From: Candidatus Undinarchaeota archaeon
GTDB lineage: Archaea > Undinarchaeota > Undinarchaeia > Undinarchaeales > UBA543
Length of the DNA: 25,694 nucleotides
Assembly (NCBI GenBank): GCA_964636545.1
Contig: CAZWSR010000010.1
Location: forward strand, 1-25,694
Direction: 5' to 3'
Shown piece by piece: positions 1,550 through 24,530 of the stretch. The position numbers were made by a program, and so were the translations under genes. The notes under the pieces were generated by a model, which saw only the letters and a program-made list of their open reading frames with translations, was not told the origin of the DNA and did no database searches. Numbering within the stretch: position 1 is the stretch's first letter; each line of letters opens with the position of its first letter.

Positions 1550-2362
1550 ATGAATTCGAAAATATTTGCAATTTTCATAATACTCCTGCTTATTTTTGCA
1601 GCAGGATGCACAGTAAAAGTCGGCCCTGAAGCAGAAACTGATGAAGTTGGTGAAGAGGCAGTAGGTAGTGGGCAGGAGGCAGTAGGCTCTGAAACTCCAA
1701 ACTCCACACTCCAAACTCCAAACTCTGAACAAACTGAAACAACTGACTGCAGTGCTCTCTGGCTCAACTACAAACAACATGTTGCAGATGGTTTCAGCCA
1801 CACAGCAGCCGTTGCATTAACTGATCCTTGCGTTAACTCATACACCCCAACTGCAGCAGAATTAGCACAAGCAGAAGCAGGAACAACGCCGCCTTCTTCC
1901 GGTTCTTCAAGTTCTTCTTCAGCACCATTAACTGAAAGCACAACAGAATTCTTAGAATATCTAAATGCAAACATATACACAACTTTCTCTGATCTTCCTG
2001 AAAGAATCCTTTTAGTTAAAAAATCAACTGACTCTGCAACTCTTACATACAGTACTAGCAACCGCGATCCAAGTCAAGAATCAGTTTACTTGTGCGGCGT
2101 TCTTCTTATGCATTACTCAGACATTGATGAAGTAAATGTAACTGGATACAATGCAGAAAACAAAGAAATGGAAGCTGCTAAGAAAACTTTCAAGAGAAGC
2201 AAGTTCAATTTCAATAATTACAAAACTTGGTTCCCAGACTATGTTTATGATGAATGTGAAGGCGATGACGATTGTGCTGACAACAATGACTGCACAAAAG
2301 ACCTTTGCAAAGAGAACAAGTGCTATAACTCAAAAATAGTCAACACTGGATGCCCAGCTTAA
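1550..2362 (+). CDS. Secreted lipoprotein with low-complexity linker and C-terminal Cys-rich module
   Basis: Signal peptide with lipobox-like FAAG-C; Ser/Thr/Glu linker; C-terminal C-x5-C-x5-C-x4-C-x4-C pattern (CEGDDDCADNNDCTKDLCKENKC). Confidence 0.8.
   Translation: MNSKIFAIFIILLLIFAAGCTVKVGPEAETDEVGEEAVGSGQEAVGSETPNSTLQTPNSEQTETTDCSALWLNYKQHVADGFSHTAAVALTDPCVNSYTPTAAELAQAEAGTTPPSSGSSSSSSAPLTESTTEFLEYLNANIYTTFSDLPERILLVKKSTDSATLTYSTSNRDPSQESVYLCGVLLMHYSDIDEVNVTGYNAENKEMEAAKKTFKRSKFNFNNYKTWFPDYVYDECEGDDDCADNNDCTKDLCKENKCYNSKIVNTGCPA
1657..1726 (+). repeat. Heptamer tandem repeats within the lipoprotein CDS
   Basis: ggcagta ggtagtg ggcagga ggcagta, then aaactcc aaactcc acactcc aaactcc aaactct; 1665-1686 is identical to 6494-6515. 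Confidence 0.85.
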
Positions 2363-2895: not shown

Positions 2896-4878
2896 ATGAA
2901 TTTACTAAATCTTATAGCACCATCTGGCGCAATTATTGCTCTTGTATTTGCGGTCATACTAGTCCGCGAAATCAAGAGACAAAGCCCAGGCAATCCTAAA
3001 ATGGTTGACCTGGCTGAAAAAATCAAAACTGGCGCATCAACGTACTTGAAACGTCAGTACATGACACTCTCAGTTTTCGTAATTATTGTAGCTGGTGTTC
3101 TGTTTTTCCTTATTGCAAGACTTACAGCACTCGCTTTTGTAATCGGTGCTCTATCTTCTGCTTTTGCAGGATACACTGGCATGATGGTTGCAACAACTGC
3201 TAATGTTAGAACAACTCAAGCAGCAAAATCAAGTTTGCACAAAGCACTCAGAATAGCATTCTCAAGCGGATCTGTAATGGGGCTCACAGTAGTCGGTCTT
3301 GGCCTACTTGGTGTAACTCTACTTTACACATTTTTCGGAGATATTTCAATGTTGTTCGGATTCGGTTTCGGAGCAAGTTCAGTAGCACTATTCGCAAGAG
3401 TTGGCGGTGGAATTTTCACAAAATCAGCTGATGTTGGTGCAGACCTTGTTGGTAAAGTTGAAGCTGGGATTCCAGAAGATGATCCACGAAATCCTGCAGT
3501 TATTGCAGACAATGTTGGAGACAATGTTGGAGATGTTGCTGGAATGGGTGCTGACCTTTTCGAATCTTATGTTGATTCAATAATTGCTGCAATGGCACTC
3601 GGTGTTGTTGGTGTAACATTCGGCGCACTTCAGCTAACTGCAAATACAGCAATTCTTCTTCCAATGCTCTTGGCAGGAATCGGTATCATCTGTTCTGTTT
3701 TCGGAAGTTTCCTAGTTCTATCAATGAAAAATGGAAAACCACAAAATGTAATGAATATGGGAATTTTCGCAAGTGCTGGTTTAACTGCAGTTGTCTCATT
3801 CTTTGCAATTTGGTATCTAACTGGAACTTATCACTTGTTCATTTCATTAATTGCTGGTCTAGCATCCGGCCTCGGAATCGGAATGGCTACAGAATATTAC
3901 ACTTCTGACAGCAAAAAGCCAGTTCAGAGCATTGCACTTGCTTCAAAAATGGGCTCAGCAACCAACATCATAACTGGTCTTTCAGTTGGTATGTTCAGCA
4001 CAGTCATTCCAGTACTCCTTGTTGTTGCTGCAATACTTGTTTCATTCAACTTCGGCGGTATTTATGGAATCGCAATTGCTGCTGTTGGTATGCTTTCAAC
4101 ACTTGGAATAACTCTCGCATCTGACACATACGGCCCAGTCGCTGACAATGCAGCTGGAATTGCTGAAATGGCAAAAGTCGGTGCAGTAGTTCGAAAACGC
4201 ACAGAACAATTGGATGCAGTTGGAAACACAACTGCTGCAATAGGCAAAGGGTTTGCAATTGGTTCAGCTGCACTCACCGCACTTGCATTATTTGTAACAT
4301 ATGCAGAAACAGTTGGTCTTAGCACAATAAACTTATTAGTTCCAAAAGTCGTGGTCGGCTTATTCCTAGGCGCTCTTCTTCCATATTTGTTCTCAGCATT
4401 TGCAATGAGGGCAGTTGGAAACGCAGCAATGTCAATTGTTGAAGAAGTTCGCAGACAATTCAAGCAAATTAAAGGTTTGATGTCTGGAAAAGCAGAAGCT
4501 GACTATGTCCGATGTATTGATATCAGCACAAAAGCAGCACTCAGAGAAATGCTTCTTCCAAGCTTTATTGCAGTTCTTTCACCAATTGCAGTTGGTCTTA
4601 CACTCGGAGTTGAAGCTCTTGGTGGCTTGCTTGCCGGAGCAGTAGCTTCTGGTTTCTTGCTTGCTATTTTGATGTCAAACTCTGGCGGTGCTTGGGACAA
4701 TGCAAAGAAATACATTGAAGCTGGAAATCTTGGTGGAAAAGGCTCAGATGTTCACAAGAACGCAGTTGTTGGGGACACAGTCGGAGATCCATTCAAGGAC
4801 ACTGCAGGACCTGCATTAAACATCTTAATCAAGTTAATGTCCATAATCGCTTTGGTATTCATACCATTGTTCCTTTAG
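2896..4878 (+). CDS. hppA: Membrane-bound K+-dependent ion-translocating pyrophosphatase, probably Na+-pumping
   Basis: Multi-TM protein with [29 protein letters not shown] and DTVGDPFKD; GNTTAAIG has the Ala of K+-dependent enzymes; DLFESY has Glu at the Na+-PPase position. Confidence 0.97.
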
Positions 4879-5577: not shown

Positions 5578-5759
5578 CCAAAAAAGCATGCAAAAGTTGC
5601 AGATTCATAAGTGAAGGACAAGTTTGTCCAATTTGCCAAGGTACTGAGCTTTCTGCTAGATGGCGCGGCCTTGCTGTTATAATTAACCCAGAAAAATCTG
5701 AAGTAGCTAAAAAACTTGAGATTAACCAAAAAGGAGAATATGCATTAATTGTTCAGTGA
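5574..5759 (+). CDS. spt4: Transcription elongation factor Spt4 (RpoE'')
   Basis: ACKSC...CPIC zinc ribbon, WRGLAVIINPEKSEVA, GEYAL; ATGA overlap with rpoE1. Confidence 0.96.
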   Translation: MTKKACKSCRFISEGQVCPICQGTELSARWRGLAVIINPEKSEVAKKLEINQKGEYALIVQ

Positions 5760-5764
5760 TTACT

Positions 5765-6268
5765 ATGGAAATTGAAGAGATTAGTTCAAAAGAAAACCTG
5801 TTCTTGAAAAGGAAAGAACTTGTGCTTAAAGTGACTGGTGAAGGCGCCACTCCAAAGAAGAACGAACTTCTTGACAAGCTTTGTTCACAGTACGATTTGA
5901 AGGACAAGAACCTTGTTGTTATTGAAACTATTAAAACTGTTTTTGGAAAAACTGAATGCGAAGCAATTATCAAAATTTATGAGTCTGAAGAAGCATTAAA
6001 ATCAATTGAACCTCAGCCAAAAAAGACAAAGGATAACACACCTTCTGATGTTCCTGATAATGATGGTCAGATGAAAGTTGATCTTGGAGATGACAAACCA
6101 GCTGAAAAGAAAGAAGAAGCTCCAGCTGAAAAGAAAGAAGAGCCAAAACCTGAAGAGAAACCAGCAGAAGCCCCAAAAGAAGAGGAGAAGAACAATGTCC
6201 AGACCTCAAAATCTGATACTGGACAAGTCTTGAAGCAAGAGAAGTCTGACAAGCTTCAAGAGGAGTGA
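5765..6268 (+). CDS. rps24e: 30S ribosomal protein S24e with long acidic C-terminal extension
   Basis: KENLFLKRKE, GATP, IKTVFG and KIYES..LKSIEP; operon position. ATG 5765 chosen over GTG 5756. Confidence 0.92.
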   Translation: MEIEEISSKENLFLKRKELVLKVTGEGATPKKNELLDKLCSQYDLKDKNLVVIETIKTVFGKTECEAIIKIYESEEALKSIEPQPKKTKDNTPSDVPDNDGQMKVDLGDDKPAEKKEEAPAEKKEEPKPEEKPAEAPKEEEKNNVQTSKSDTGQVLKQEKSDKLQEE

Positions 6269-6273
6269 TTTAA

Positions 6274-6612
6274 ATGGCAGAAGAACAGAAAAAACAAACT
6301 GGAAAAAAGAGAAATTACAAGGGAAAATTCAATTTCTATGAAGTCAAAGGCGAAACAGTAGAGCGCAAGAACAAAGTTTGTCCAAAATGCGGACCAGGCG
6401 CTTTTCTAGCAATTCACAAAGACAGATTATCTTGCGGTGGTTGCGGTTATACTGAACCAACTGGCGCTGCACCTGCAGAAAACAGGGCAGAATGTAGTGG
6501 GCAGGAGGCAGTAGGTGATAAAGAACCTCAAACCCCAAACCCAAAACCCCAAACCTCTGAAAAAGAAGCTCCAAAAGAAGAAAAGAAAGAACCAGAAGAA
6601 AAGAAAGAATAG
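6274..6612 (+). CDS. rps27ae: 30S ribosomal protein S27ae with C-terminal extension
   Basis: [26 protein letters not shown] zinc ribbon. Confidence 0.96.
6486..6557 (+). repeat. Heptamer tandem repeats within the rps27ae extension
   Basis: ggcagaa tgtagtg ggcagga ggcagta, then gaacctc aaacccc aaaccca aaacccc aaacctc. Confidence 0.85.
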
Positions 6613-7935: not shown

Positions 7936-8427
7936 ATGACCAATCATTCAGATATAGATTCAATTGATACCTCCCTTCTCAAGCTTCTGCAGAAGGATGG
8001 GTACTGCGTTCCAAAAACAACCAAGCTAGCAAAGGAACTAAATCTGCCTGCTGCAACTGTGCATTCCAGAATAAAAAAATTAGTTGACAAAGGCGTTATC
8101 CAAACTTTCCAAGCAGTTCTTGATGGAAAAAAAGCTGGAAAATCTTTAATTGTTTTCACAATTCTAAAAGTTGTTTATTCAGATCGTTACAGTGACAAAA
8201 AATCAATGCTTGATTTTGCTAAAAAATTAACTGATATTCCAGAAGTTATGGAAGTTCACTCTTGCTCAGCTGATTGGGATTATTTCCTGAAAATGAAAGT
8301 CAAAGATACAACTGATTATAATCGTGTGTTAACAGAAGAACTGTTGCCTCTTGGCGGTATTGAAAAATCTGAGAGTGTTGTTGTGTATGGAACTTACAAG
8401 GAAAACCTTAACATTTCTCTTCCGTAA
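7936..8427 (+). CDS. Lrp/AsnC-family transcriptional regulator
   Basis: IDSIDTSLLKLLQKDG, LAKELNLPAATVHSRIKKL..GVI, and IPEVMEVHSCSADWDYFLK. Confidence 0.93.
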   Translation: MTNHSDIDSIDTSLLKLLQKDGYCVPKTTKLAKELNLPAATVHSRIKKLVDKGVIQTFQAVLDGKKAGKSLIVFTILKVVYSDRYSDKKSMLDFAKKLTDIPEVMEVHSCSADWDYFLKMKVKDTTDYNRVLTEELLPLGGIEKSESVVVYGTYKENLNISLP

Positions 8428-12263: not shown

Positions 12264-12365
12264 GCTTTATCCTCTTATGACTGGGCTTAATATTTGTTGT
12301 GGTTGGTGCTTTTTAGGCGAAAACTTTTATACTAACTAATGCATTGAAAAACTGAGGGGAATGTG

Positions 12366-12506
12366 TTGGATGATGAAAAGTCACTAGGTCCAGTTACTGG
12401 ATTACGCGCAGGTCTTGTCGGGTGCTTAATCTTGATTTTGATATGTCTAATGCTATATTACACATTTTGGCCCCTTGTTAAGATTGCTGCTACTTTTGTT
12501 GCATAA
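12366..12506 (+). CDS. Small single-TM protein with class III (pilin-type) signal-peptide-like N-terminus; absent from ORF track
   Basis: TTG start (GTG at 12363 also in frame) after GAGGGG; MDDEKSLGPVTGLRAGLVGCLILILICLMLYYTFWPLVKIAATFVA. Confidence 0.55.
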   Translation: MDDEKSLGPVTGLRAGLVGCLILILICLMLYYTFWPLVKIAATFVA

Positions 12507-12525
12507 ATGTTGGTTATATTTGTTC

Positions 12526-12612
12526 AGGTAGTAGGTAGTAGGCAGTGGGTTGTAGGTTAGGTTATTCCTACTGCCCACTGCCCACTACCCAGTGCCCACT
12601 ACCCAGTGCCCA
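12526..12612. repeat. Intergenic heptamer inverted-repeat element
   Basis: aggtagt aggtagt aggcagt gggttgt agg, 10-nt spacer, then cctactg cccactg cccacta cccagtg cccacta cccagtg; arms are imperfect reverse complements. Confidence 0.9.
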
Positions 12613-12659
12613 TCTCCATGACCAAAAGGTTTATATCTGATTTTTGTCCATTTTTTAGT

Positions 12660-13259
12660 ATGCATATGTCAAAACATATATTCGCAAGCTTTGTACTGGG
12701 AAGTAGCCTACTCTATTTGCTAAATATGCCAATTTTTTCAAAAGAGCTTATTGTTATGGTGCTTGTCGGTGGTGGTGTGGATTTTGACCATCTCATAATC
12801 CAAATGATGCATGGCAACTTATTCCATCCAGAAAAGATGGCTCGTCACTTTGCAGCCACTAAAGACAGCCATACTGGTTTCTTATATTTATTTCACACAT
12901 ACGAGGCAATGACTCTTGTTGCTCTCGCCGGTCTCTTAAATCCAATGTTCTTCTTCGCATTTGGTGCAATGGCTTTGCACTTTGTTTGTGATGCTATTTG
13001 CAATTTCAGGGACACACATACTTTCGAGTGGATTGAAGATTATTCAGTAATTTATTATCTCTATAACAGACGAGATTATCATGTTGTTGAAAAAGTTTTT
13101 GTAAAATCTCTTAAGATGATGAATCCAATGAGTTCAAAAAGCATTTTCAAACTTTTTGCAGTATATGCTGCTTATGTTTATACAAATCCAAAATTCTTCT
13201 TCGGTTCTTTTGTTGATTTTCCAATAAGAATTGTTAAGTGGATGGTTTCTAAATTATAA
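12660..13259 (+). CDS. Membrane protein, putative metal-dependent hydrolase (YdjM-like His/Asp pattern)
   Basis: KHIF, DFDH, FHT and HFVCD spaced among TM helices; ATG 12660 or 12666 lies about 25-30 nt after TTTATA. Confidence 0.7.
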   Translation: MHMSKHIFASFVLGSSLLYLLNMPIFSKELIVMVLVGGGVDFDHLIIQMMHGNLFHPEKMARHFAATKDSHTGFLYLFHTYEAMTLVALAGLLNPMFFFAFGAMALHFVCDAICNFRDTHTFEWIEDYSVIYYLYNRRDYHVVEKVFVKSLKMMNPMSSKSIFKLFAVYAAYVYTNPKFFFGSFVDFPIRIVKWMVSKL

Positions 13260-13334
13260 TGGTGGGCCCAACCGGATTTGAACCGGTGACCTCCGCCATG
13301 TGAAGGCGACATCATACCACTAGACTATGGGCCC
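13260..13334 (-). tRNA. tRNA-Val (anticodon CAC), intronless, CCA encoded
   Basis: Acceptor GGGCCCA/TGGGCCC, anticodon arm TCGCC-TTCACAT-GGCGG, T arm ACCGG-TTCAAAT-CCGGT, 3' ACCA. Confidence 0.98.
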
Positions 13335-13393
13335 GAGAAATATATCTTCTTCTCACAGCAATGTTTAATAAGGTTTTCTGCATTCTATTTACT

Positions 13394-13582
13394 ATGACAA
13401 CTTGTCCAAAATGCAAACTTGAAATCAACCAAGCAGATCTTGTAATCTGTGCTAAGTGCAATGTTGAGCTTCATAAGGGATGTTCTCGTACTTATGGTCC
13501 AAAAATTGAGAAAAAGCGATATTGCAGGCATTGCCGTAAGGAATTAGATGAAGACAATCCAACTTGGGTTGGGATGGGATGA
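13394..13582 (+). CDS. Small zinc-finger protein (PHD/RING-like C4HC3 spacing)
   Basis: CPKC-x9-CAKC-x4-H-x2-C-x13-CRHC; ATGA overlap with rnp4. Confidence 0.75.
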   Translation: MTTCPKCKLEINQADLVICAKCNVELHKGCSRTYGPKIEKKRYCRHCRKELDEDNPTWVGMG

Positions 13583-13896
13583 AAAAGCAAAAGCGTGGAA
13601 ATGTCAAACAATCTCTGAAAGAACTTGCTAGAGATCGAATTAAAATTCTTTTCAAACATGCTGAAAAAGCAACTCCTGAAGCTGCTCAGAAAGCTGTTAA
13701 ACGAGCTCGTGCAATTGGGATGAAATATCGGGTGCATATGCCAAAGGATGTTAAGAGAAAATATTGCAAAAAATGCAATGCTTTTTTAAGGCCAGGGGTG
13801 AATTGCACAATTCGATTAAATCAGAAGAAACAGCCGCATGTTGTGATTACTTGTAAGGGTTGTGGGGCAATTATGCGGGTGCCGTATAAAAAGTAG
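13579..13896 (+). CDS. rnp4: Ribonuclease P protein component 4 (Rpp21)
   Basis: LARDRIKILF, ARAIGMKYR, KRKYCKKC..L.PG and ITCKGCG..R.PY. Confidence 0.96.
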   Translation: MKKQKRGNVKQSLKELARDRIKILFKHAEKATPEAAQKAVKRARAIGMKYRVHMPKDVKRKYCKKCNAFLRPGVNCTIRLNQKKQPHVVITCKGCGAIMRVPYKK

Positions 13897-13962
13897 GTAT
13901 CAGGTATCAGCCCTCGGCCCTCAGGACCTGACTGCTGAATGCTGACAGCTGACACCTTAACC
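13896..13962. repeat. REP-like 4+4 heptamer palindrome, copy A
   Basis: ggtatca ggtatca gccctcg gccctca GGACC tgactgc tgaatgc tgacagc tgacacc TTAACC. Confidence 0.9.
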
Positions 13963-14047
13963 AACATAACCAAAAACTTATAAACACCCTTCTTAATGAA
14001 TTCTTCACCAATGGGGATTGGTTCTGCGCGGCAGGAGAAATAAAACT

Positions 14048-14668
14048 ATGGTAAATGCATACGACGTACCTGCATCAGATCTTATTGATGCAGTTGCAAA
14101 AGAACTAAAAAATAATGAAAAAATACAGCCTCCAGAATGGATGGCTTTTGCAAAGAGCGGAGCTCATGTAGAGCGACCGCCTCAGGACGAAGACTTCTGG
14201 TATATCCGTGGAGCATCAATGCTTCGCAAGATTTACGTGAAGGGCAACCTCGGAACCGAGCGCTTGCGAACTGAATTTGGTGGGAAGCGAAACCGCGGAG
14301 CAAAACCAGGACAGCACAGAAAAGCTGGCGGATCAATTATTCGAAAACTTCTCCAGCAATTTGAAGCAGCTGGTCTCATTAAGAAAATGAAAACCGGTCG
14401 CGTAATTGCACCTGCTGGTCAGAAACTTTTGGATAATACTGCTTACACACTTTCTAAAAAGCCAAAAACCAAAGAAGAGGCAGTTGAACAGGTTAAGGAA
14501 AAAGCAAAAGATATGGCTGAGAAACTTCCAGAACAGAAATCTGAGAAACTGAAAATCAAACCTGAAAAGAAAGAAGATAAGCCAAAAAAGGAAGAGCCAA
14601 AACCAGAGCAGAAACCTGAGAAGAAAGAAGAAAAGCCAAAAGAAGACGCCAAACCTGAAAAGAACTAA
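14048..14668 (+). CDS. rps19e: 30S ribosomal protein S19e with Lys/Glu/Pro tail
   Basis: DVPASDLI, PEWMAFAKSG, ERPP, WYIRGASMLRK and GSIIRKLLQQFE; ATG 14048 after AGGAG. Confidence 0.97.
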   Translation: MVNAYDVPASDLIDAVAKELKNNEKIQPPEWMAFAKSGAHVERPPQDEDFWYIRGASMLRKIYVKGNLGTERLRTEFGGKRNRGAKPGQHRKAGGSIIRKLLQQFEAAGLIKKMKTGRVIAPAGQKLLDNTAYTLSKKPKTKEEAVEQVKEKAKDMAEKLPEQKSEKLKIKPEKKEDKPKKEEPKPEQKPEKKEEKPKEDAKPEKN

Positions 14669-16894: not shown

Positions 16895-17305
16895 ATGGCT
16901 GAAGAAACTAAAGAAATCAAAAAGGAAGAGGTTGCACCAAAACCTGAGCCAAAGCAGGACAAGCCAAAAAAAGAAGGTATATTAGCTCAAGCAAAAAAGA
17001 TGGCCGAATCAAAAAAGACAGGTAAGCCAGAAAAGAAAGAAGATCCAAAAAAAGAAGTTAAAAAAGGACCTGCACGAGTTTTCACAATTCCACTAAAAGT
17101 TGGACAACCACGCATGACAAAAACAAGGCGTGCAGTTAAACAAATTCGATTATTTGTTGAAAAGCACACAAAACAGGAAGCAGTTATTGATGAAGCACTT
17201 AATGAGCTTATGTGGTCCCGAGGAAGGAAAAAACCACCAGCAAGCATTAGGGTTTCTGTTGAGACAAGCGAAGACAATAAAGCAGTTGTTTCACTTAAGA
17301 AATAG
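16895..17305 (+). CDS. rpl31e: 50S ribosomal protein L31e with N-terminal Lys/Glu extension
   Basis: RVFTIPL, RAVKQIRLFVEKH and LNELMWSRGRKKPPASIRV. Confidence 0.95.
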   Translation: MAEETKEIKKEEVAPKPEPKQDKPKKEGILAQAKKMAESKKTGKPEKKEDPKKEVKKGPARVFTIPLKVGQPRMTKTRRAVKQIRLFVEKHTKQEAVIDEALNELMWSRGRKKPPASIRVSVETSEDNKAVVSLKK

Positions 17306-18121: not shown

Positions 18122-19642
18122 ATGTTTGAGAATTTAAAAAAGAAGCTCAAGAAGGCCATAAGCAAGGTCTCAGGAAAGATTGACGAGCCAGAGCCAGAAG
18201 TAATTGAAGAAGAAATTTTAGAAGATGCTCAAGCAGAAGAGAAAGCTGAGGAAATTATTGAAGAAGCTGAAAAAGTAGAAGAAGCAATCTCTGAGAAAGA
18301 TCATGATCACGAAGCTGAAGTTGAGGAAGTTATTGAAGAAACTCTTAAAGAACCAATTCCAGAACCAGAACTTGAGCTTGAAAAAGAAACTGAAAAAACC
18401 GAAGAGCTTGAAAAAGAACTTGTTGAGGATGAGAAAGCTGAGGAGCTTATTGAAGAAATCAAGGAAGAGCCAAAAACTGAGGAAGAAGAAAAACTCGAGG
18501 AAAAAACCGAAGAACTCATTGAAAAAGTCCTTGATACTGAACCAAATGAAGTCGAGATTAAAGAAGCTAAAAAAGAGCTTGCTGAATCACCTGTTGTTGA
18601 TCTTGATGATGCTGAACTGCAGATAATTCAAGAGGCTGAAAAGGAAGCAGAAGCTGAAATTGAAAAGCACAAAGAAGTTCTGAAAAAAGAAGGTGAAGGA
18701 TTTTTCAAGAGGATGTTCAAGAAGAAAGAGAAACCTCCTGAAGAACCAAAACCAACACCAAAACCTGAAACACCTCACGCAACCTTGATGGAGAGGCTTC
18801 GCAACAAAAAGCTTTCTGATAAAGACATGGACAAGGTTCTCTGGGATCTTGAGCTCGCACTTATTGAAAATGATGTTGCAAAAGAAGTTACTGAAAAAAT
18901 CAATAATGATATAAAGCAAAAACTTCTTGGCTCTGAATCTTCTCGCCAAAGTGTACAAACCATAATCACTGACACACTCAAAAACTCACTTAATGATATT
19001 TTAAGAAAAGAAAAAATTGATATTGCTCAAAAAGCCAAGGACAAAACCGAGAAGCCGTATGTTATTTTGTTCTTTGGATTTAATGGAACTGGCAAGACAA
19101 TGACAATAGGTAAGTTTGCAAAACTACTCAAAAATGCTGGTCTAACTTGCGTAATGGCTGCTGGAGATACTTTCCGTGCAGCTGCAATTGAACAACTTGA
19201 AATTCATGCAAACAATCTTGGTGTTCCAATAATTAAACAGGAGCGCGGTTCTGATTCAGCTGCAGTGATTTATGATGCAATTGATCATGCAAAAGCAAAA
19301 GGAATTGATGTTGTGCTTGCAGATACTGCTGGCCGGTCTGATACTAATATTAATTTAATGGATGAGCTAAAGAAAGTAGTTCGAGTTAATTCTCCTGATC
19401 TGAAAGTTTTTGTTGGAGATGCTTTAACTGGAAATGATGCAGCTGACCAAGCAAAAGTGTTCCACGAATCAGTTGGAATTGATGCTTCTGTGCTTACAAA
19501 AATTGATTGTGATGCAAAAGGTGGGGCATGCTTATCTGTTTCTTATGTAACTGATGCTCCAATTGTTTATCTTGGAACTGGGCAGGGTTATGACGACATG
19601 GAACCTTTTGAACCAGAATGGTTTTTGAACAAGGTATTTTAA
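18122..19642 (+). CDS. ftsY: SRP receptor FtsY with long acidic N-terminal domain
   Basis: GFNGTGKT, DTFRAAA, DTAGR, TKIDCDAKGG and GTGQGYDD. Confidence 0.98.
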   Translation: MFENLKKKLKKAISKVSGKIDEPEPEVIEEEILEDAQAEEKAEEIIEEAEKVEEAISEKDHDHEAEVEEVIEETLKEPIPEPELELEKETEKTEELEKELVEDEKAEELIEEIKEEPKTEEEEKLEEKTEELIEKVLDTEPNEVEIKEAKKELAESPVVDLDDAELQIIQEAEKEAEAEIEKHKEVLKKEGEGFFKRMFKKKEKPPEEPKPTPKPETPHATLMERLRNKKLSDKDMDKVLWDLELALIENDVAKEVTEKINNDIKQKLLGSESSRQSVQTIITDTLKNSLNDILRKEKIDIAQKAKDKTEKPYVILFFGFNGTGKTMTIGKFAKLLKNAGLTCVMAAGDTFRAAAIEQLEIHANNLGVPIIKQERGSDSAAVIYDAIDHAKAKGIDVVLADTAGRSDTNINLMDELKKVVRVNSPDLKVFVGDALTGNDAADQAKVFHESVGIDASVLTKIDCDAKGGACLSVSYVTDAPIVYLGTGQGYDDMEPFEPEWFLNKVF

Positions 19643-21792: not shown

Positions 21793-22734
21793 ATGATTAG
21801 AGTAGGTGTTATAGGTGCTGGCAAGTGGGGCAAGAACCATGTTAGAGTATACTCTCAACTTGAGAACTGCGAGCTTGTTGGACTAGCTGACATAAATCCT
21901 GAAACCAAGGCGCTTGCTGACGAATTTAATACTGGATTTTTCACTGATTATCATGAAATGCTTGAAAAATGCGATGCTGTTTCAATTGTTGTACCTACTG
22001 ATCTGCATTATGAAATTGTCAAAGAATGCGTAAATGCTGGCAAACATGTGCTTGTTGAAAAGCCATTAACAAAAAATGCTGAGCAGTCAGCAGAACTTCG
22101 GAAACTAGCTGAGGAAAAAGGAGTTTATTTGACTGTTGGCTATTTGTTCAGATTTAATGCAGCTGTTCAGGAATTAAAAAAGCGCTTACCAGAACTTGGT
22201 GATATTCAATACATAACAGCAAGATATATGCATTCAAACAAGCCACCACGCAAGGACTCTGGAGTTGTTTTTAATTTCGGTGTTCACTTAATTGATATTC
22301 TAAGTTTTGTTCTTGAACAAAAACCAAAGAAAGTTTATTGCAAATCAAAAAGCTTTTTGTCAGAACGAGAAGATGCTGCAATTGCAACAATGGATTATGG
22401 CAGTTTCATGGCAGAGCTTGAAATGAGCTGGCTTCACCCGCTAAAGAAACGTGATATGTGGGTAATTGGTTCAAAGAAAAAAGTTTACATTGACTTGCTT
22501 GAGCAAATGATGACAATTTATACAATTGAAGTTAGCTATGACGGCAACAAAATTGAGCCAGAACAAAATATTGAAATTCACAAAAACGAGCCACTGAAAG
22601 AAGAATTAACAAGTTTTATTAGCACAATTGATTCAGGAAATTTTGCAAATGGCAATGATGCTTATGACACTACAAAAATTTGCGAACTTTGTTTAAAATC
22701 ATCTGCAGAAGGAGTTGAACTTTCAAATGAATAA
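21793..22734 (+). CDS. Gfo/Idh/MocA oxidoreductase, WbpB/WlbA-like nucleotide-sugar 3-dehydrogenase
   Basis: VGVIGAGKWG, GKHVLVEKP, RFN and GVHLID; gene context. Confidence 0.9.
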   Translation: MIRVGVIGAGKWGKNHVRVYSQLENCELVGLADINPETKALADEFNTGFFTDYHEMLEKCDAVSIVVPTDLHYEIVKECVNAGKHVLVEKPLTKNAEQSAELRKLAEEKGVYLTVGYLFRFNAAVQELKKRLPELGDIQYITARYMHSNKPPRKDSGVVFNFGVHLIDILSFVLEQKPKKVYCKSKSFLSEREDAAIATMDYGSFMAELEMSWLHPLKKRDMWVIGSKKKVYIDLLEQMMTIYTIEVSYDGNKIEPEQNIEIHKNEPLKEELTSFISTIDSGNFANGNDAYDTTKICELCLKSSAEGVELSNE

Positions 22735-23347
22735 ACAATATAAAAATGTTAAACTTGGTGAAAACTGTGAGCTAGGTGGCAATAATGAAATCGGAGTTAC
22801 GCCTCGCGGAAAAACTGAGGGCGAACTTGAAACAGTTATTGGAAATAATGCAGTTATTCGCTCAAACACAGTAATTTATGCTGGAAATAAAATTGGAAAT
22901 AATTTACAAACCGGTCATGGTGTAATGATTCGTGAAGAAAATGAAATTGGAGATGATGTTTCAATTGGAACAAATTCAGTTGTTGAGCATCATGTGAAAA
23001 TCGGAAACAAAGTGCGAATGCATACTGGAGTTTTTGTTCCAGAATACACAATTATTGAAGAAGGTGCATGGATTGGACCAAAAGTTGCAATTACAAATGC
23101 GCGATTCCCTCTTGGAAAAGATATTAAACAGAGATTAGAAGGAGTTACAATTAAAAAGAATGTGAAAATTGGGGCAAATGCAACAATCTTGCCTGGTGTT
23201 ACAATTGGTGAAAATTCATTAATTGGTGCCGGAAGCGTTGTTATTTCAGATGTTCCAGAAAATAGCGTTGCTGTTGGAAATCCAGCAAAGGTCATCAAGA
23301 AAGTTGATGAACTGAAATATGATGATGGCGTGAAGCCGTATGATTAA
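22727..23347 (+). CDS. Hexapeptide-repeat N-acetyltransferase, WbpD/WlbB-like
   Basis: Left-handed beta-helix repeats; IGANATILPGVTIG...GAGSVV...GNPAK. Confidence 0.92.
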   Translation: MNKQYKNVKLGENCELGGNNEIGVTPRGKTEGELETVIGNNAVIRSNTVIYAGNKIGNNLQTGHGVMIREENEIGDDVSIGTNSVVEHHVKIGNKVRMHTGVFVPEYTIIEEGAWIGPKVAITNARFPLGKDIKQRLEGVTIKKNVKIGANATILPGVTIGENSLIGAGSVVISDVPENSVAVGNPAKVIKKVDELKYDDGVKPYD

Positions 23348-23348
23348 A

Positions 23349-23415
23349 GGCGTCAGCGGTCAGCCCTCAGCAGTCAGGACCTGATGGCTGAAGGCCGAGG
23401 GCCGATACCTTAACC
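23349..23415. repeat. REP-like 4+4 heptamer palindrome, copy B
   Basis: ggcgtca gcggtca gccctca gcagtca GGACC tgatggc tgaaggc cgagggc cgatacc TTAACC. Confidence 0.9.
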
Positions 23416-23429
23416 AAAAGGACAAAAAA

Positions 23430-24530
23430 ATGAAAGTACCACTAGTTGACTTAGTTGCACAATACAACTCAATTAAAGAGGAAATGGATATCGCAATCCA
23501 GGGAATTCTGGACAGCGGTCAATTTATTTTAGGTGAACCAGTTAAGAAATTTGAAAAAGAATTTGCTGATTACTGTGGAGCAAAACGCTCTGTTGGTGTT
23601 GGAAACGGCACAGCTGGATTAAAGCTCGCACTTCTTGCTTGTGGTATTGGAAAAGGCGATGAAGTAATTACAACTCCGCACACATTCGGTGCAACAACTG
23701 AAGCAATCATTGACTGTGGTGCAGTTCCAAAATTCGTAGATATTGAAGAGAAAACCTACAACATTGATCCTCAATTAATAGAAGCAGCTGTAACTGAAAA
23801 AACAAAAGCAATTCTTCCAGTTCATCTTTATGGCCAGACTTGTGACATGGGAAAGATTATGGAAATTGCAGAAAAGCACAGTTTAAAAGTTATTGAAGAT
23901 GCATGTCAGGCACATGGTTCAGAATACAATGGAAAGCGAGTTGGTGCAATTGGAGATGCTGGGGTTTTTAGTTTCTACCCTGGAAAGAATCTTGGAGCAT
24001 ATGGTGATGCAGGCGGTGTGACTACAAATTCTGATGAAATTGCTGATAAGATTTTAATACTTCGTAATCACGGCAGAACTGGAAAATACAAGCACGAATA
24101 TTTTGGAATGAATGACAGAATCGATGCTTTGCAAGCAGCTGTTCTTTCAGTTAAACTTCCTCACATGGATAAGTGGACAGACATGCGGAGAGCAAATGCG
24201 AAGATTTACAATGAATATCTGGAAGGGTCAGATGCAATAATTCCATTTGAAGCAGAGTATGCAAAACATGTTTATCATTTGTATGTTGCAAGAATTCAGA
24301 ACAGGGATGCAAGATTAGCAAAACTACAGGAGAAAGAAATTGGAGCTGGAATACATTATCCAACACCATTACATCTCCAGCCCGTTTTCAAGAATCTTGG
24401 ATATAAAGAAGGCGATTTCCCAGTAACTGAGAAGATTGCAAAAGAAATAATTACACTTCCAATGTATCCTGAAATGCCAAGAGAACAGATTGAGTTTACT
24501 TGCACTAGTTTGAAAGAAACATTACAATAA
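23430..24530 (+). CDS. DegT/DnrJ/EryC1/StrS PLP-dependent sugar aminotransferase, WbpE/WlbC-like
   Basis: [16 protein letters not shown] and [15 protein letters not shown] (PLP lysine). Confidence 0.95.

Follow-up and report, generated by a model that had tools for sequence, protein, structure and literature searches.

Heptamer-built hairpins between the cistrons of an Undinarchaeota archaeon: a candidate copy-and-paste repeat with stop codons and a Shine-Dalgarno-like tail

Cyanobacteria have been known since 1990 to carry intergenic arrays of tandem seven-nucleotide units, which were later reported from Xanthomonas and giant sulfur bacteria as well. The cyanobacterial arrays, known as short tandemly repeated repetitive (STRR) sequences, were reportedly described by Mazel et al. 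in 1990 as genome-specific, intergenic tandem heptamers with units of the NNNCAGT and NNGGTCA types, and Elhai et al. are said to have found, in 2008, small dispersed repeats (SDR) nested in such arrays. Here, we describe heptamer arrays of an archaeon, beginning with two palindromes of 61 bp on a 25,694-nucleotide contig of Candidatus Undinarchaeota (GCA_964636545.1, contig CAZWSR010000010.1; the whole contig is called the window). Both palindromes consist of four GNNNTCR units, the centre GGACC and four YGANNNC units, and a genome-wide pattern search placed both in a family of 19 loci, named family A. Our preferred reading, held at roughly even confidence, is that family A is a non-autonomous copy-and-paste intercistronic repeat of the heptamer-array class, similar to repetitive extragenic palindromic (REP) sequences, in the form of a cassette of stop codons, hairpin and Shine-Dalgarno (SD)-like motif.

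In Xanthomonas, GGGAATC or GGGANTN heptamers form 186 arrays in Xcc and 183 in Xac, the majority with four units and mostly in intergenic positions (Rehm et al. 2015, PMC4692102). Convergent pairs able to form stem-loops account for 70 of the 186 and 75 of the 183 arrays, respectively, with the G-rich arm first on each strand, and the repeats occur in the same gene contexts in two species with changed length and sequence. The paper also reports similar repeats in Nostoc (GGGGAYT), mentions heptanucleotides of Calothrix and describes heptameric simple sequence repeats (SSRs) as over-represented in many bacteria, with slippage as the proposed cause; it states that there was no detailed literature on heptameric repeats at that time. 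In addition, the heptamer repeats of Nostoc affect the expression of recF and recO according to a 2022 preprint (10.1101/2022.06.06.494920). As in Xanthomonas and Nostoc, the genome of the archaeal host contains tandem 7-nt units with fixed and variable positions, an over-representation of period 7, about four to five units per array and a mostly intergenic placement, and its frequent inverted pairs have the polarity seen in Xanthomonas, with the G+T-rich arm at the 5' side. The repeats of Xanthomonas and Nostoc are bacterial, have one vocabulary per genus and have been interpreted as G-quadruplex formers, whereas the archaeal host uses at least six vocabularies, and its family A carries a tail with TAA and an SD-like motif, is tightly placed between a stop codon and an ATG and has an identical unit at two loci. 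All cases of the heptamer-array class described so far have bacterial hosts; the archaeon differs from them in host, not in architecture.

In marine Beggiatoaceae, and also in some cyanobacteria and Bacteroidetes, direct repeats of TAACTGA have been described a short way upstream of start codons (MacGregor 2015, PMC4679880). Rephased, (TAACTGA)n becomes (TGATAAC)n, which fits the 3'-arm unit YGANNNC of family A, and the TAACTGA sets, of 2 to 6 copies each, resemble family A in their forward orientation upstream of starts, their forward stop codons and their patchy phylogeny. Unlike family A, they consist of a single heptamer in direct order only (one inverted set among 170), mostly end 1 nt before the start and have neither hairpin nor tail; the word "archaea" has no occurrence in the text of PMC4679880. 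Our literature search, which included PMC8044849 and PMC12699852, found in the available parts of the texts no account of heptamer arrays in archaea or of the stop-hairpin-SD cassette form. The archaeal occurrence and the cassette form appear to be new, and the heptamer-array class itself was already known. A first-pass annotation of the window, made from the letters alone, had called the two palindromes the best candidate for an undescribed system, which was too strong since heptamer arrays had been described in Xanthomonas, Nostoc and Beggiatoaceae. The STRR units may resemble vocabularies of the archaeal host, and STRR sequences are cyanobacterial; we know of no stop-hairpin-SD cassette among the STRR or SDR repeats.

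REP sequences are palindromes of 20 to 40 nt with a conserved GTAG-type head. Together with BIME and REPIN elements, they occur with RAYT transposases (Bertels and Rainey 2011, PMC3116915). Family A is like REP and REPIN elements in that its members are short, imperfect, extragenic palindromes in many copies, located between co-transcribed genes, lineage specific, variably present or absent among relatives and similar in behaviour to non-autonomous mobile DNA. It is unlike them in its lack of a GTAG head, its length of 61 nt, its 7-nt units, its unpaired variable positions and its 3' tail resembling a ribosome-binding site (RBS), and no RAYT/Y1 transposase was found in the 83%-complete host genome. 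REP/REPIN membership was rejected on the missing RAYT match and GTAG head, and membership of the MITEs (transposable elements of the miniature inverted-repeat kind) appears unlikely, as no consistent target-site duplication was seen and no transposase was found with five families in the incomplete assembly. The idea of a REP-like mobile element, raised in the first-pass annotation, thus stands in part: the multiple copies, extragenic imperfect palindromes, 19 loci, empty sites and 82-nt unit at two loci agree with it, and no transposase was found among the five families searched. The family is not confined to two copies lacking empty sites or a shared flank, nor are its members the ends of a catalogued insertion sequence or MITE.

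The two copies and their surroundings on the window are listed below; G001 and G002 are congeners (sister species) of the host, and C6 is another contig of the host genome.

13896-13956, plus strand: copy 1, family A hairpin, identified by pattern match and fold
13957-13968, plus strand: tail of copy 1, TTAACCAACATA, which with the hairpin makes up the segment absent from congener G001
13564-13896, plus strand: RNase P subunit Rpr2/Rpp21, upstream of copy 1 (PF04032, 6.9e-19); its TAG at 13894-13896 shares the last G with the first unit
13977-13984, plus strand: CTTATAAA, TATA-box-like motif of the S19e gene, conserved in G001 and G002; native and outside the insert
14048-14668, plus strand: ribosomal protein S19e, downstream of copy 1 (PF01090, 4.7e-51); start at TTG 14018 in the list of open reading frames (ORFs), ATG at 14048
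23349-23409, plus strand: copy 2, family A hairpin, identified by pattern match and fold
23410-23429, plus strand: tail of copy 2, TTAACCAA (contains TAA) followed by AAGGACAAAAAA; AGGA at 23419-23422; the ATG is at 23430, 11 nt downstream
23347-23428, plus strand: 82-nt stretch identical to one on C6, which delimits the copied unit
22715-23347, plus strand: hexapeptide-repeat transferase, upstream of copy 2 (PF00132), with TAA at 23345-23347
23430-24530, plus strand: DegT/DnrJ/EryC1 aminotransferase, downstream of copy 2 (PF01041, 8e-126)

Copy 1 reads GGTATCA GGTATCA GCCCTCG GCCCTCA GGACC TGACTGC TGAATGC TGACAGC TGACACC, and copy 2 reads GGCGTCA GCGGTCA GCCCTCA GCAGTCA GGACC TGATGGC TGAAGGC CGAGGGC CGATACC; both are followed by TTAACCAA. 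As seen by searching the window with the full 67-nt pattern of the first-pass annotation, exactly two places matched, 13896-13962 and 23349-23415, both on the plus strand with 0 mismatches, and no match was obtained in 100 dinucleotide-preserving shuffles, which bears out the two identically built palindromes. Their start within 1 to 2 nt of a stop codon was likewise confirmed: the TAG upstream of copy 1 ends at 13896, sharing its G with the element, and the TAA upstream of copy 2 ends at 23347, 1 nt before the element. The sequence of copy 1 was verified by a contig from run X9, an independent data set, which covers 13296-14112 with 0 differences, and sister copies of family A were matched by four metagenome contigs (L096, L107, L110 and L114).

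The strongest single fact is the identity of 82 nt at two unrelated loci. The run at 23347-23428, which comprises the hairpin of copy 2 and its tail up to GGACAAAAA, is identical to a run at the end of C6 (hairpin at 45545-45605), and the flanks of the two are unrelated. The C6 copy was confirmed by contig L110, and its site is empty in both congeners, G001 (gtaATGtac) and G002. The genome of G001 (733,777 bp) was compared in full; the site of copy 1 is also empty there, with positions 8227 and 8228 of its contig C2 contiguous where the host has about 72 extra nt; in G002 this site holds an unrelated 271-nt insert. At the site of copy 2, G002 reads ...TACTAATGGAT..., with an overlapping stop and start (TAATG) and no element, and G001 has an NNNAGCT-type array with two copies of TTAACCAA and the same AGGACAAAAAAATG end. 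A further family A site, C2:16515 of the host, is empty in G001 and carries a different vocabulary in G002. Empty orthologous sites, which the first-pass annotation proposed to look for in relatives, were therefore found. The tail is missing from them; TTAACC as a pre-existing target, formerly suggested, is thus not supported, and the TTAACCAA tail comes with the element.

Family A was delimited in the host genome with a pattern of a short centre flanked on either side by two or more units, which gave the 19 loci; a stricter pattern of 3+3 units matched 15 places (control, 0). In six copies the build is exactly 4+5+4, or 61 nt, and the median identity between pairs of these is 82%; a TTAACC-like tail lies at most 16 nt away in 17 of the 19 loci. 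The copied unit, of about 82 nt, can be written as a 61-nt imperfect hairpin (four GNNNTCR, GGNCC, four YGANNNC) followed by a tail of TTAACCAA, one base and AGGAYAAA, in which TTAACCAA is in phase with the 3' arm, as a degenerate fifth unit. A slightly loosened tail pattern (AAC[CA]AA, then any two bases, then GGAYAAA) had 12 matches, 11 of them directly after heptamer hairpins (eight of family A, two of vocabulary B and one of vocabulary D, defined below). The tail is not general to gene starts, as AACCAA was found at -40 to -3 of only 32 of the 599 ATGs. The order of the units is also shared: identity between units at the same position, out of 7, was 5.56 versus 4.93 at different positions in the 5' arm and 5.37 versus 4.49 in the 3' arm, values that were reached in 0 of 2000 permutations. 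This position-specific order indicates that the family A copies descend from a common sequence, or share a position-specific consensus, and did not arise by independent expansions.

The 17 copies that can be oriented by the tail have a uniform gene context. The neighbouring gene is on the same strand upstream in 16 and downstream in 15 of the 17; the upstream stop codon is 2 to 10 nt before the first unit in 13 copies, and in five of these the TAG uses the first G of the element. In one copy the upstream frame enters the element and ends at a TGA of the 3' arm. The ATG is located 20 to 30 nt past the last unit in 11 of the 17 copies; copies may instead end before the TATA box of the downstream gene. 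The 5' arm is stop-free in every frame in 17/17 copies, and the 3' arm with the tail stops all three sense frames in 14/17, which holds for none of 2000 shuffles and for 18% of the 72-nt stretches drawn at random from the genome; in 10 of the 17 the tail TAA supplies the stop of the third frame, which the TGAs leave open. Relative to ATGs genome-wide, SD-like GAGG/AGGA motifs are most frequent at -9 to -15 and TATA-like ones at -28 to -33, and the 3' end of the 16S rRNA reads ...GATCACCTCCT. The genes downstream of the copies are functionally unrelated.

Next, the hairpins were analysed at the level of pairing. Folding of the plus-strand RNA predicted a single hairpin with short helices and regular internal loops for copy 1 (-28.5 kcal/mol, z -3.8) and for copy 2 (-30.1 kcal/mol, z -2.8), and the antisense RNAs were predicted to be more stable (-33.7 and -39.4 kcal/mol, respectively). 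In an alignment of eight copies, 76.8% of the cells were standard pairs in register, against 18 to 44% when the partner was slid by 1 to 3 columns. Fifteen of the 28 pairs were invariant, and some columns were almost never paired (0/8, 1/8 or 2/8 of the copies), in agreement with the regularly spaced internal loops that had been noticed at the outset. The variable positions were complementary at 1.41 of 3, compared with 1.17 of 3 for random unit pairs, and no covariation was detected in the eight-copy alignment (score of 0.034, against 0.040 for the mean of 500 shuffles, of which 326 equalled or exceeded it). Neither did the sense strand have a wobble signature, the mismatches on the tail strand being 31 G·U and 46 A·C. 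Since the variable positions are not kept complementary and do not covary, what is kept are the 4-nt constant blocks at period 7, and the earlier idea that the periodic architecture, not the exact sequence, is maintained holds.

Several known types of element were considered for the two copies and set aside. An intrinsic terminator does not fit, as in the sense orientation TTAACCAA and an A-rich tail come after the hairpin, and T-rich sequence does so only on the antisense strand. The internal loops are symmetric, 2x2 or 3x3, and not the opposed 3-nt bulges of a bulge-helix-bulge splicing motif, and the ACCA of a possible tRNA-like hairpin with CCA is 4 nt beyond the stem. At the gathering threshold, the only Rfam match in the window was the tRNA at 13263-13334 on the minus strand.

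The two palindromes are the visible tip of a genome-wide system. Period-7 blocks (17/21 matches) numbered 66 in the host genome, compared with 0 to 15 for the periods from 4 to 12 and 0 to 1 in shuffled sequence, and a looser threshold gave 120 period-7 regions in 0.84 Mb; Tandem Repeats Finder (TRF) returned 279 period-7 rows, with copy numbers clustering near 4 to 5. At least six unit vocabularies occur among the regions, to which we assigned the letters A (GNNNTCA), B (AGGYAGT/ACTRCCY), C (GARTTTR/YAAAYTC), D (TCGTTWT/AWAACGA), E (GGNATCG/CGATNCC) and F (RGGTTKG/CMAACCY). NNNAGCT-type arrays adjoin tRNA genes; those abutting tRNA genes at C1:93217, C1:135568 and C13:2006 of the host are missing at the same places in G001. 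Of the 52 arrays of at least 55 nt, 43 are hairpins with at least 60% pairing (median arm, 35 nt; median pairing, 72%). Crude ORF calls take in 94% of the genome, and 87 of the 120 regions are outside them; convergent spacers are under-represented (7 observed versus about 13.5 expected). Hairpin-forming arrays are almost confined to spacers: long arrays with and without a hairpin numbered 42 and 2 in intergenic positions and 1 and 7 within ORFs (Fisher p = 2e-6). The G+T-rich arm is the 5' arm in 38 of 43 hairpins of the host and in 8 of 8 of G001, whatever the vocabulary, and the five exceptions all belong to family A, whose arms are nearly balanced and without G-run richness.

The congener G001 has 59 period-7 regions with other dominant vocabularies, such as GGCKTTA/TAAMGCC. 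Both flanks are syntenic in G001 for 85 of the 120 host regions; about 20 of these 85 are missing there, with the flanks abutting, and at least 11 spacers are filled in both genomes by different vocabularies with a conserved SD/ATG or TATA flank. Some of the GGCKTTA/TAAMGCC arrays of G001 have a nested insert of about 25 nt (type ATTCAGCTGCTCAAACAGCTCAAAAC) in the 3' arm, for example, at C1:7206-7309, C1:8590-8680 and C7:35272-35380, and these inserts are reminiscent of the SDR nested in cyanobacterial heptamer arrays. A 12-bp palindrome, TGACATATGTCA, is found 12 times in the host and 14 times in G001 with one mismatch allowed (for example, at C1:91586, C5:49153 and C6:24845 of the host and at C2:33442 and C8:74043 of G001) and has no occurrence in the window; it is often beside a TATA box and heptamer arrays, is conserved at orthologous places and may be an operator.

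Across archaea, the 3+3-unit hairpin pattern was found in 2 of 41 archaeal genomes, at the 15 places in the host and at one in G002. An array of four TCRG-type units was present in 7 of 61 genomes, with 36 in the host, 16 in G001 and 11 in G007 (control, 0 in each), 10 in G010 (control, 7) and a single match each in G002, G016 and G040. Among the archaea sampled, the arrays are concentrated in two families of one order. When one genome per prokaryotic species was searched with the strict hairpin pattern, 11 loci were obtained, all bacterial and most of them heptamer hairpins themselves. Five bacterial genomes (G041 to G045) contained 17, 243, 22, 174 and 56 TCRG arrays against controls of 2, 86, 6, 12 and 0, respectively, the count of 243 belonging to an unpublished genome (G042), and these arrays are often in plus/minus pairs 30 to 100 nt apart. 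Their sequences L029, L030, L032, L037 and L038, from metagenome-assembled genomes of Gemmatimonadales, Terriglobales, Planctomycetaceae and Alphaproteobacteria, have vocabularies of their own, with tens to hundreds of arrays. Viral contigs gave 0 matches to the hairpin pattern and 5 raw matches to an arm+tail pattern, one of which, L118, covers the contig range of L115, which is not an array. The arm+tail scan of metagenomes gave 30 loci, of which four are of this organism and several are heptamer arrays of other organisms ending in CCTTAACCAA. These endings are not taken as a sign that the tail is conserved, CTTAACC being one mismatch from a CTGAACC unit.

How a repeat of this kind could persist between genes may be understood from its build. 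A cassette with its own stops and ribosome-binding site would do hardly any harm between cistrons: the 5' arm leaves every frame open, the 3' arm and the tail TAA would close all three, and the tail would give the downstream gene an SD-like motif at the right distance, which suggests why the cassette is tolerated at stop/start junctions. On the mRNA, each copy would present a hairpin with a predicted energy of about -28 to -30 kcal/mol, formed by helices of 4 to 5 bp and periodic internal loops. By analogy with REP/BIME elements in bacterial operons, the probable role of this hairpin is that of a stability barrier or an uncoupler of translation, and it does not look like a terminator because no T-run follows. 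The copying itself could be by an enzyme, by host recombination or by template switching.

A number of observations weigh against copying and pasting. No match to Y1_Tnp (PF01797), RVT_1, DDE_Tnp_1 or DDE_3 (IS4/5-type and IS630-type) was found in the 83%-complete host genome, and a TnpB-type domain reached only 16.9 bits, below the cut-off; co-occurring transposases, which the first-pass annotation proposed to look for, thus had no match above the cut-off in a search of five Pfam families on an incomplete assembly. The junctions of empty and filled sites have no consistent target-site duplication and only ambiguities of 1 to 4 nt (TA, AATG). The empty G001 site e94 holds a single unit-like TCGTTAC where the host has a full array, which fits growth in place, and simple insertion does not explain the vocabulary swap at the at least 11 shared spacers. 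No presence/absence polymorphism at 13896 or 23349 was seen among the matches listed, which come from four DNA runs as short contigs. Finally, the bias in orientation may be a mere consequence of selection on the SD-bearing tail, and it includes the copy at C4:26973, which is the single exception for both the upstream and the downstream strand; the script oriented this copy on a weaker TTAAAC match, and the canonical tail is on its opposite strand.

One alternative is that the hairpins are cis-regulatory RNAs of the host, i.e., selected intercistronic or 3'-untranslated structures in which a protein would read the geometry of 4-bp helices and 3-nt loops and not the sequence. The strict sense orientation, the placement between a stop codon and an SD or TATA motif, the architecture kept over at least six vocabularies, the exclusion of hairpin arrays from ORFs and the significantly stable predicted folds would all suit such a role, as would the many spacers filled in both congeners, though by different vocabularies. 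Nevertheless, the variable positions pair almost randomly and do not covary, the G·U and A·C counts carry no sense signature and the antisense strand folds better. Moreover, the same genes lack the elements at their orthologous sites in congeners, the genes downstream of the copies are unrelated in function and Rfam has no match; we consider this explanation unlikely. The symmetry of the G·U and A·C counts would fit a constraint at the DNA level, as expected if the arrays were binding sites on double-stranded DNA, operator- or centromere-like, with one 7-bp unit per protein dimer. The model here is the ribbon-helix-helix (RHH) protein omega/ParB of pSM19035, whose parS needs at least four contiguous heptads, direct or inverted, for full activity (PMC9499535). 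Family A is a formal match, with 4+4 contiguous 7-bp units, four constant positions and direct and inverted order (arrow-arrow/reversed-arrow), and omega is thus a candidate for something that works alike. Unlike family A, the omega arrays overlap promoters of the plasmid's own genes and use one conserved heptad, WATCACW. In addition, RHH_1 (PF01402), the only RHH family searched, had matches in 11 of 14 other relatives, the majority of them without arrays, and in 0 of the 3 genomes of the array-rich genus; a co-evolving protein would be needed for each of the at least six vocabularies, which change from congener to congener; family A copies are mostly between cistrons and not over promoters; and about 120 sites in 0.84 Mb are many for an operator or centromere. 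Of the explanations considered, such binding arrays appear highly improbable.

The remaining explanation is that the arrays are mutational by-products formed in place, polymerase slippage giving the heptamer SSRs and template switching the second arm, without any transfer from locus to locus. The excess of heptameric SSRs in bacteria, for which slippage was proposed (PMC4692102), agrees with it, as do the seed at e94 and the different vocabularies of congeners at the same spacer, and the G+T-rich 5' arm (38/43 and 8/8) could reflect a strand-specific fold-back bias. Formation in place does not readily account for an 82-nt unit that is identical, including its non-repetitive tail, at two unrelated loci, or for the position-specific order of units across copies. 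The unit numbers are narrow, about 4 to 5 per arm, where slippage would give a broad spectrum of lengths, and the empty sites are clean junctions at which the stop and the start codon overlap. We therefore find it rather unlikely, somewhat more so than regulatory RNA and less so than binding arrays, and keep copy-and-paste spread of the cassette as the preferred reading for family A.

A broader proposal, which is possible but doubtful, is that heptamer hairpins are one element class across domains, possibly with a shared mechanism that makes or renews them. In this order, the cassette would land on overlapping stop/start codons by means of its own three-frame stops and RBS, and the swap of vocabulary with the tail and SD kept would be template-driven rewriting (concerted evolution), not independent insertions. 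What is added here to the bacterial record is about 120 places with heptamer architecture in the genome, roughly 1 Mb, of a marine archaeon, and TCRG-type arrays are also multi-copy in genomes of Gemmatimonadota, Acidobacteriota, Planctomycetota and Alphaproteobacteria. In a tiny genome that has three sequenced congeners, filled, empty and replaced sites can be told apart cleanly, one identical 82-nt unit is present at two loci, and the proposed cassette follows an explicit logic of open 5' arm, stops in three frames and SD. This makes it a compact model in which to study the spread of such repeats, the reason for a period of seven and their effects on the expression of operons.

The window is an entire contig, one of 39 that add up to 840,427 bp in an assembly with a completeness of 82.8%. 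Its genes with Pfam matches include those of archaeal information processing (SRP54, FtsY, Rpr2/Rpp21, S19e, S24e, S27a, L31e, L18Ae, prefoldin and an Rpb7-like subunit), from which it follows that the host is an archaeon, one with a small genome and, judged by that size, possibly DPANN-like. DNA of the window recurs in metagenomes of seawater and hydrothermal vents, in 20 DNA runs that belong to 16 studies; no RNA run is among those listed. Around copy 1, the S19e gene has an SD-bearing leader between the TATA-like CTTATAAA and the ATG, and the tRNA gene at 13263-13334 on the minus strand is just upstream of the Rpp21 gene. The neighbours of copy 2, the hexapeptide transferase and the DegT aminotransferase, belong to a sugar-modification cluster. 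Three other arrays of heptamers are present in the window.

12526-12612, no strand assigned: hairpin of AGGYAGT x4-5 / ACTRCCC x6 (another vocabulary) upstream of SRP54, in the divergent spacer; predicted fold of -46.2 kcal/mol (z -5.3)
1655-1733, plus strand: two-block array within an ORF, AGGCAGT-type then AAACTCC-type; not self-complementary, 51% paired
6486-6561, plus strand: two-block array within an ORF, GGCAGT-type then AAACCCC-type, in the C-terminal extension of S27a, whose Pfam domain ends at residue 60 of 112

The two arrays within ORFs combine blocks from different vocabularies, are unpaired and encode low-complexity peptide (…EAVGSGQEAVGSETPNS…); the ORF that holds 1655-1733 is an unannotated, secreted-looking protein, and no G001 orthologue of the two proteins was found by tblastn. 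Long extensions rich in Lys, Glu and Pro were seen in S19e, S24e, S27a, L31e and FtsY (14500-14668, 5756-6268, 6274-6612, 16895-17060 and 18122-18800), and most direct-repeat families of the window come from them. The gene of a PIN-domain protein (2363-2845) adjoins that of a membrane H+-pyrophosphatase (2896-4878), an ordinary arrangement. In four marine metagenome runs, the bin at 12365-13031, which holds the 12526-12612 hairpin, had a summed contig depth of 228 to 541x, compared with about 3 to 10x in the neighbouring bins, so that sequences like this array must be very abundant in those samples.

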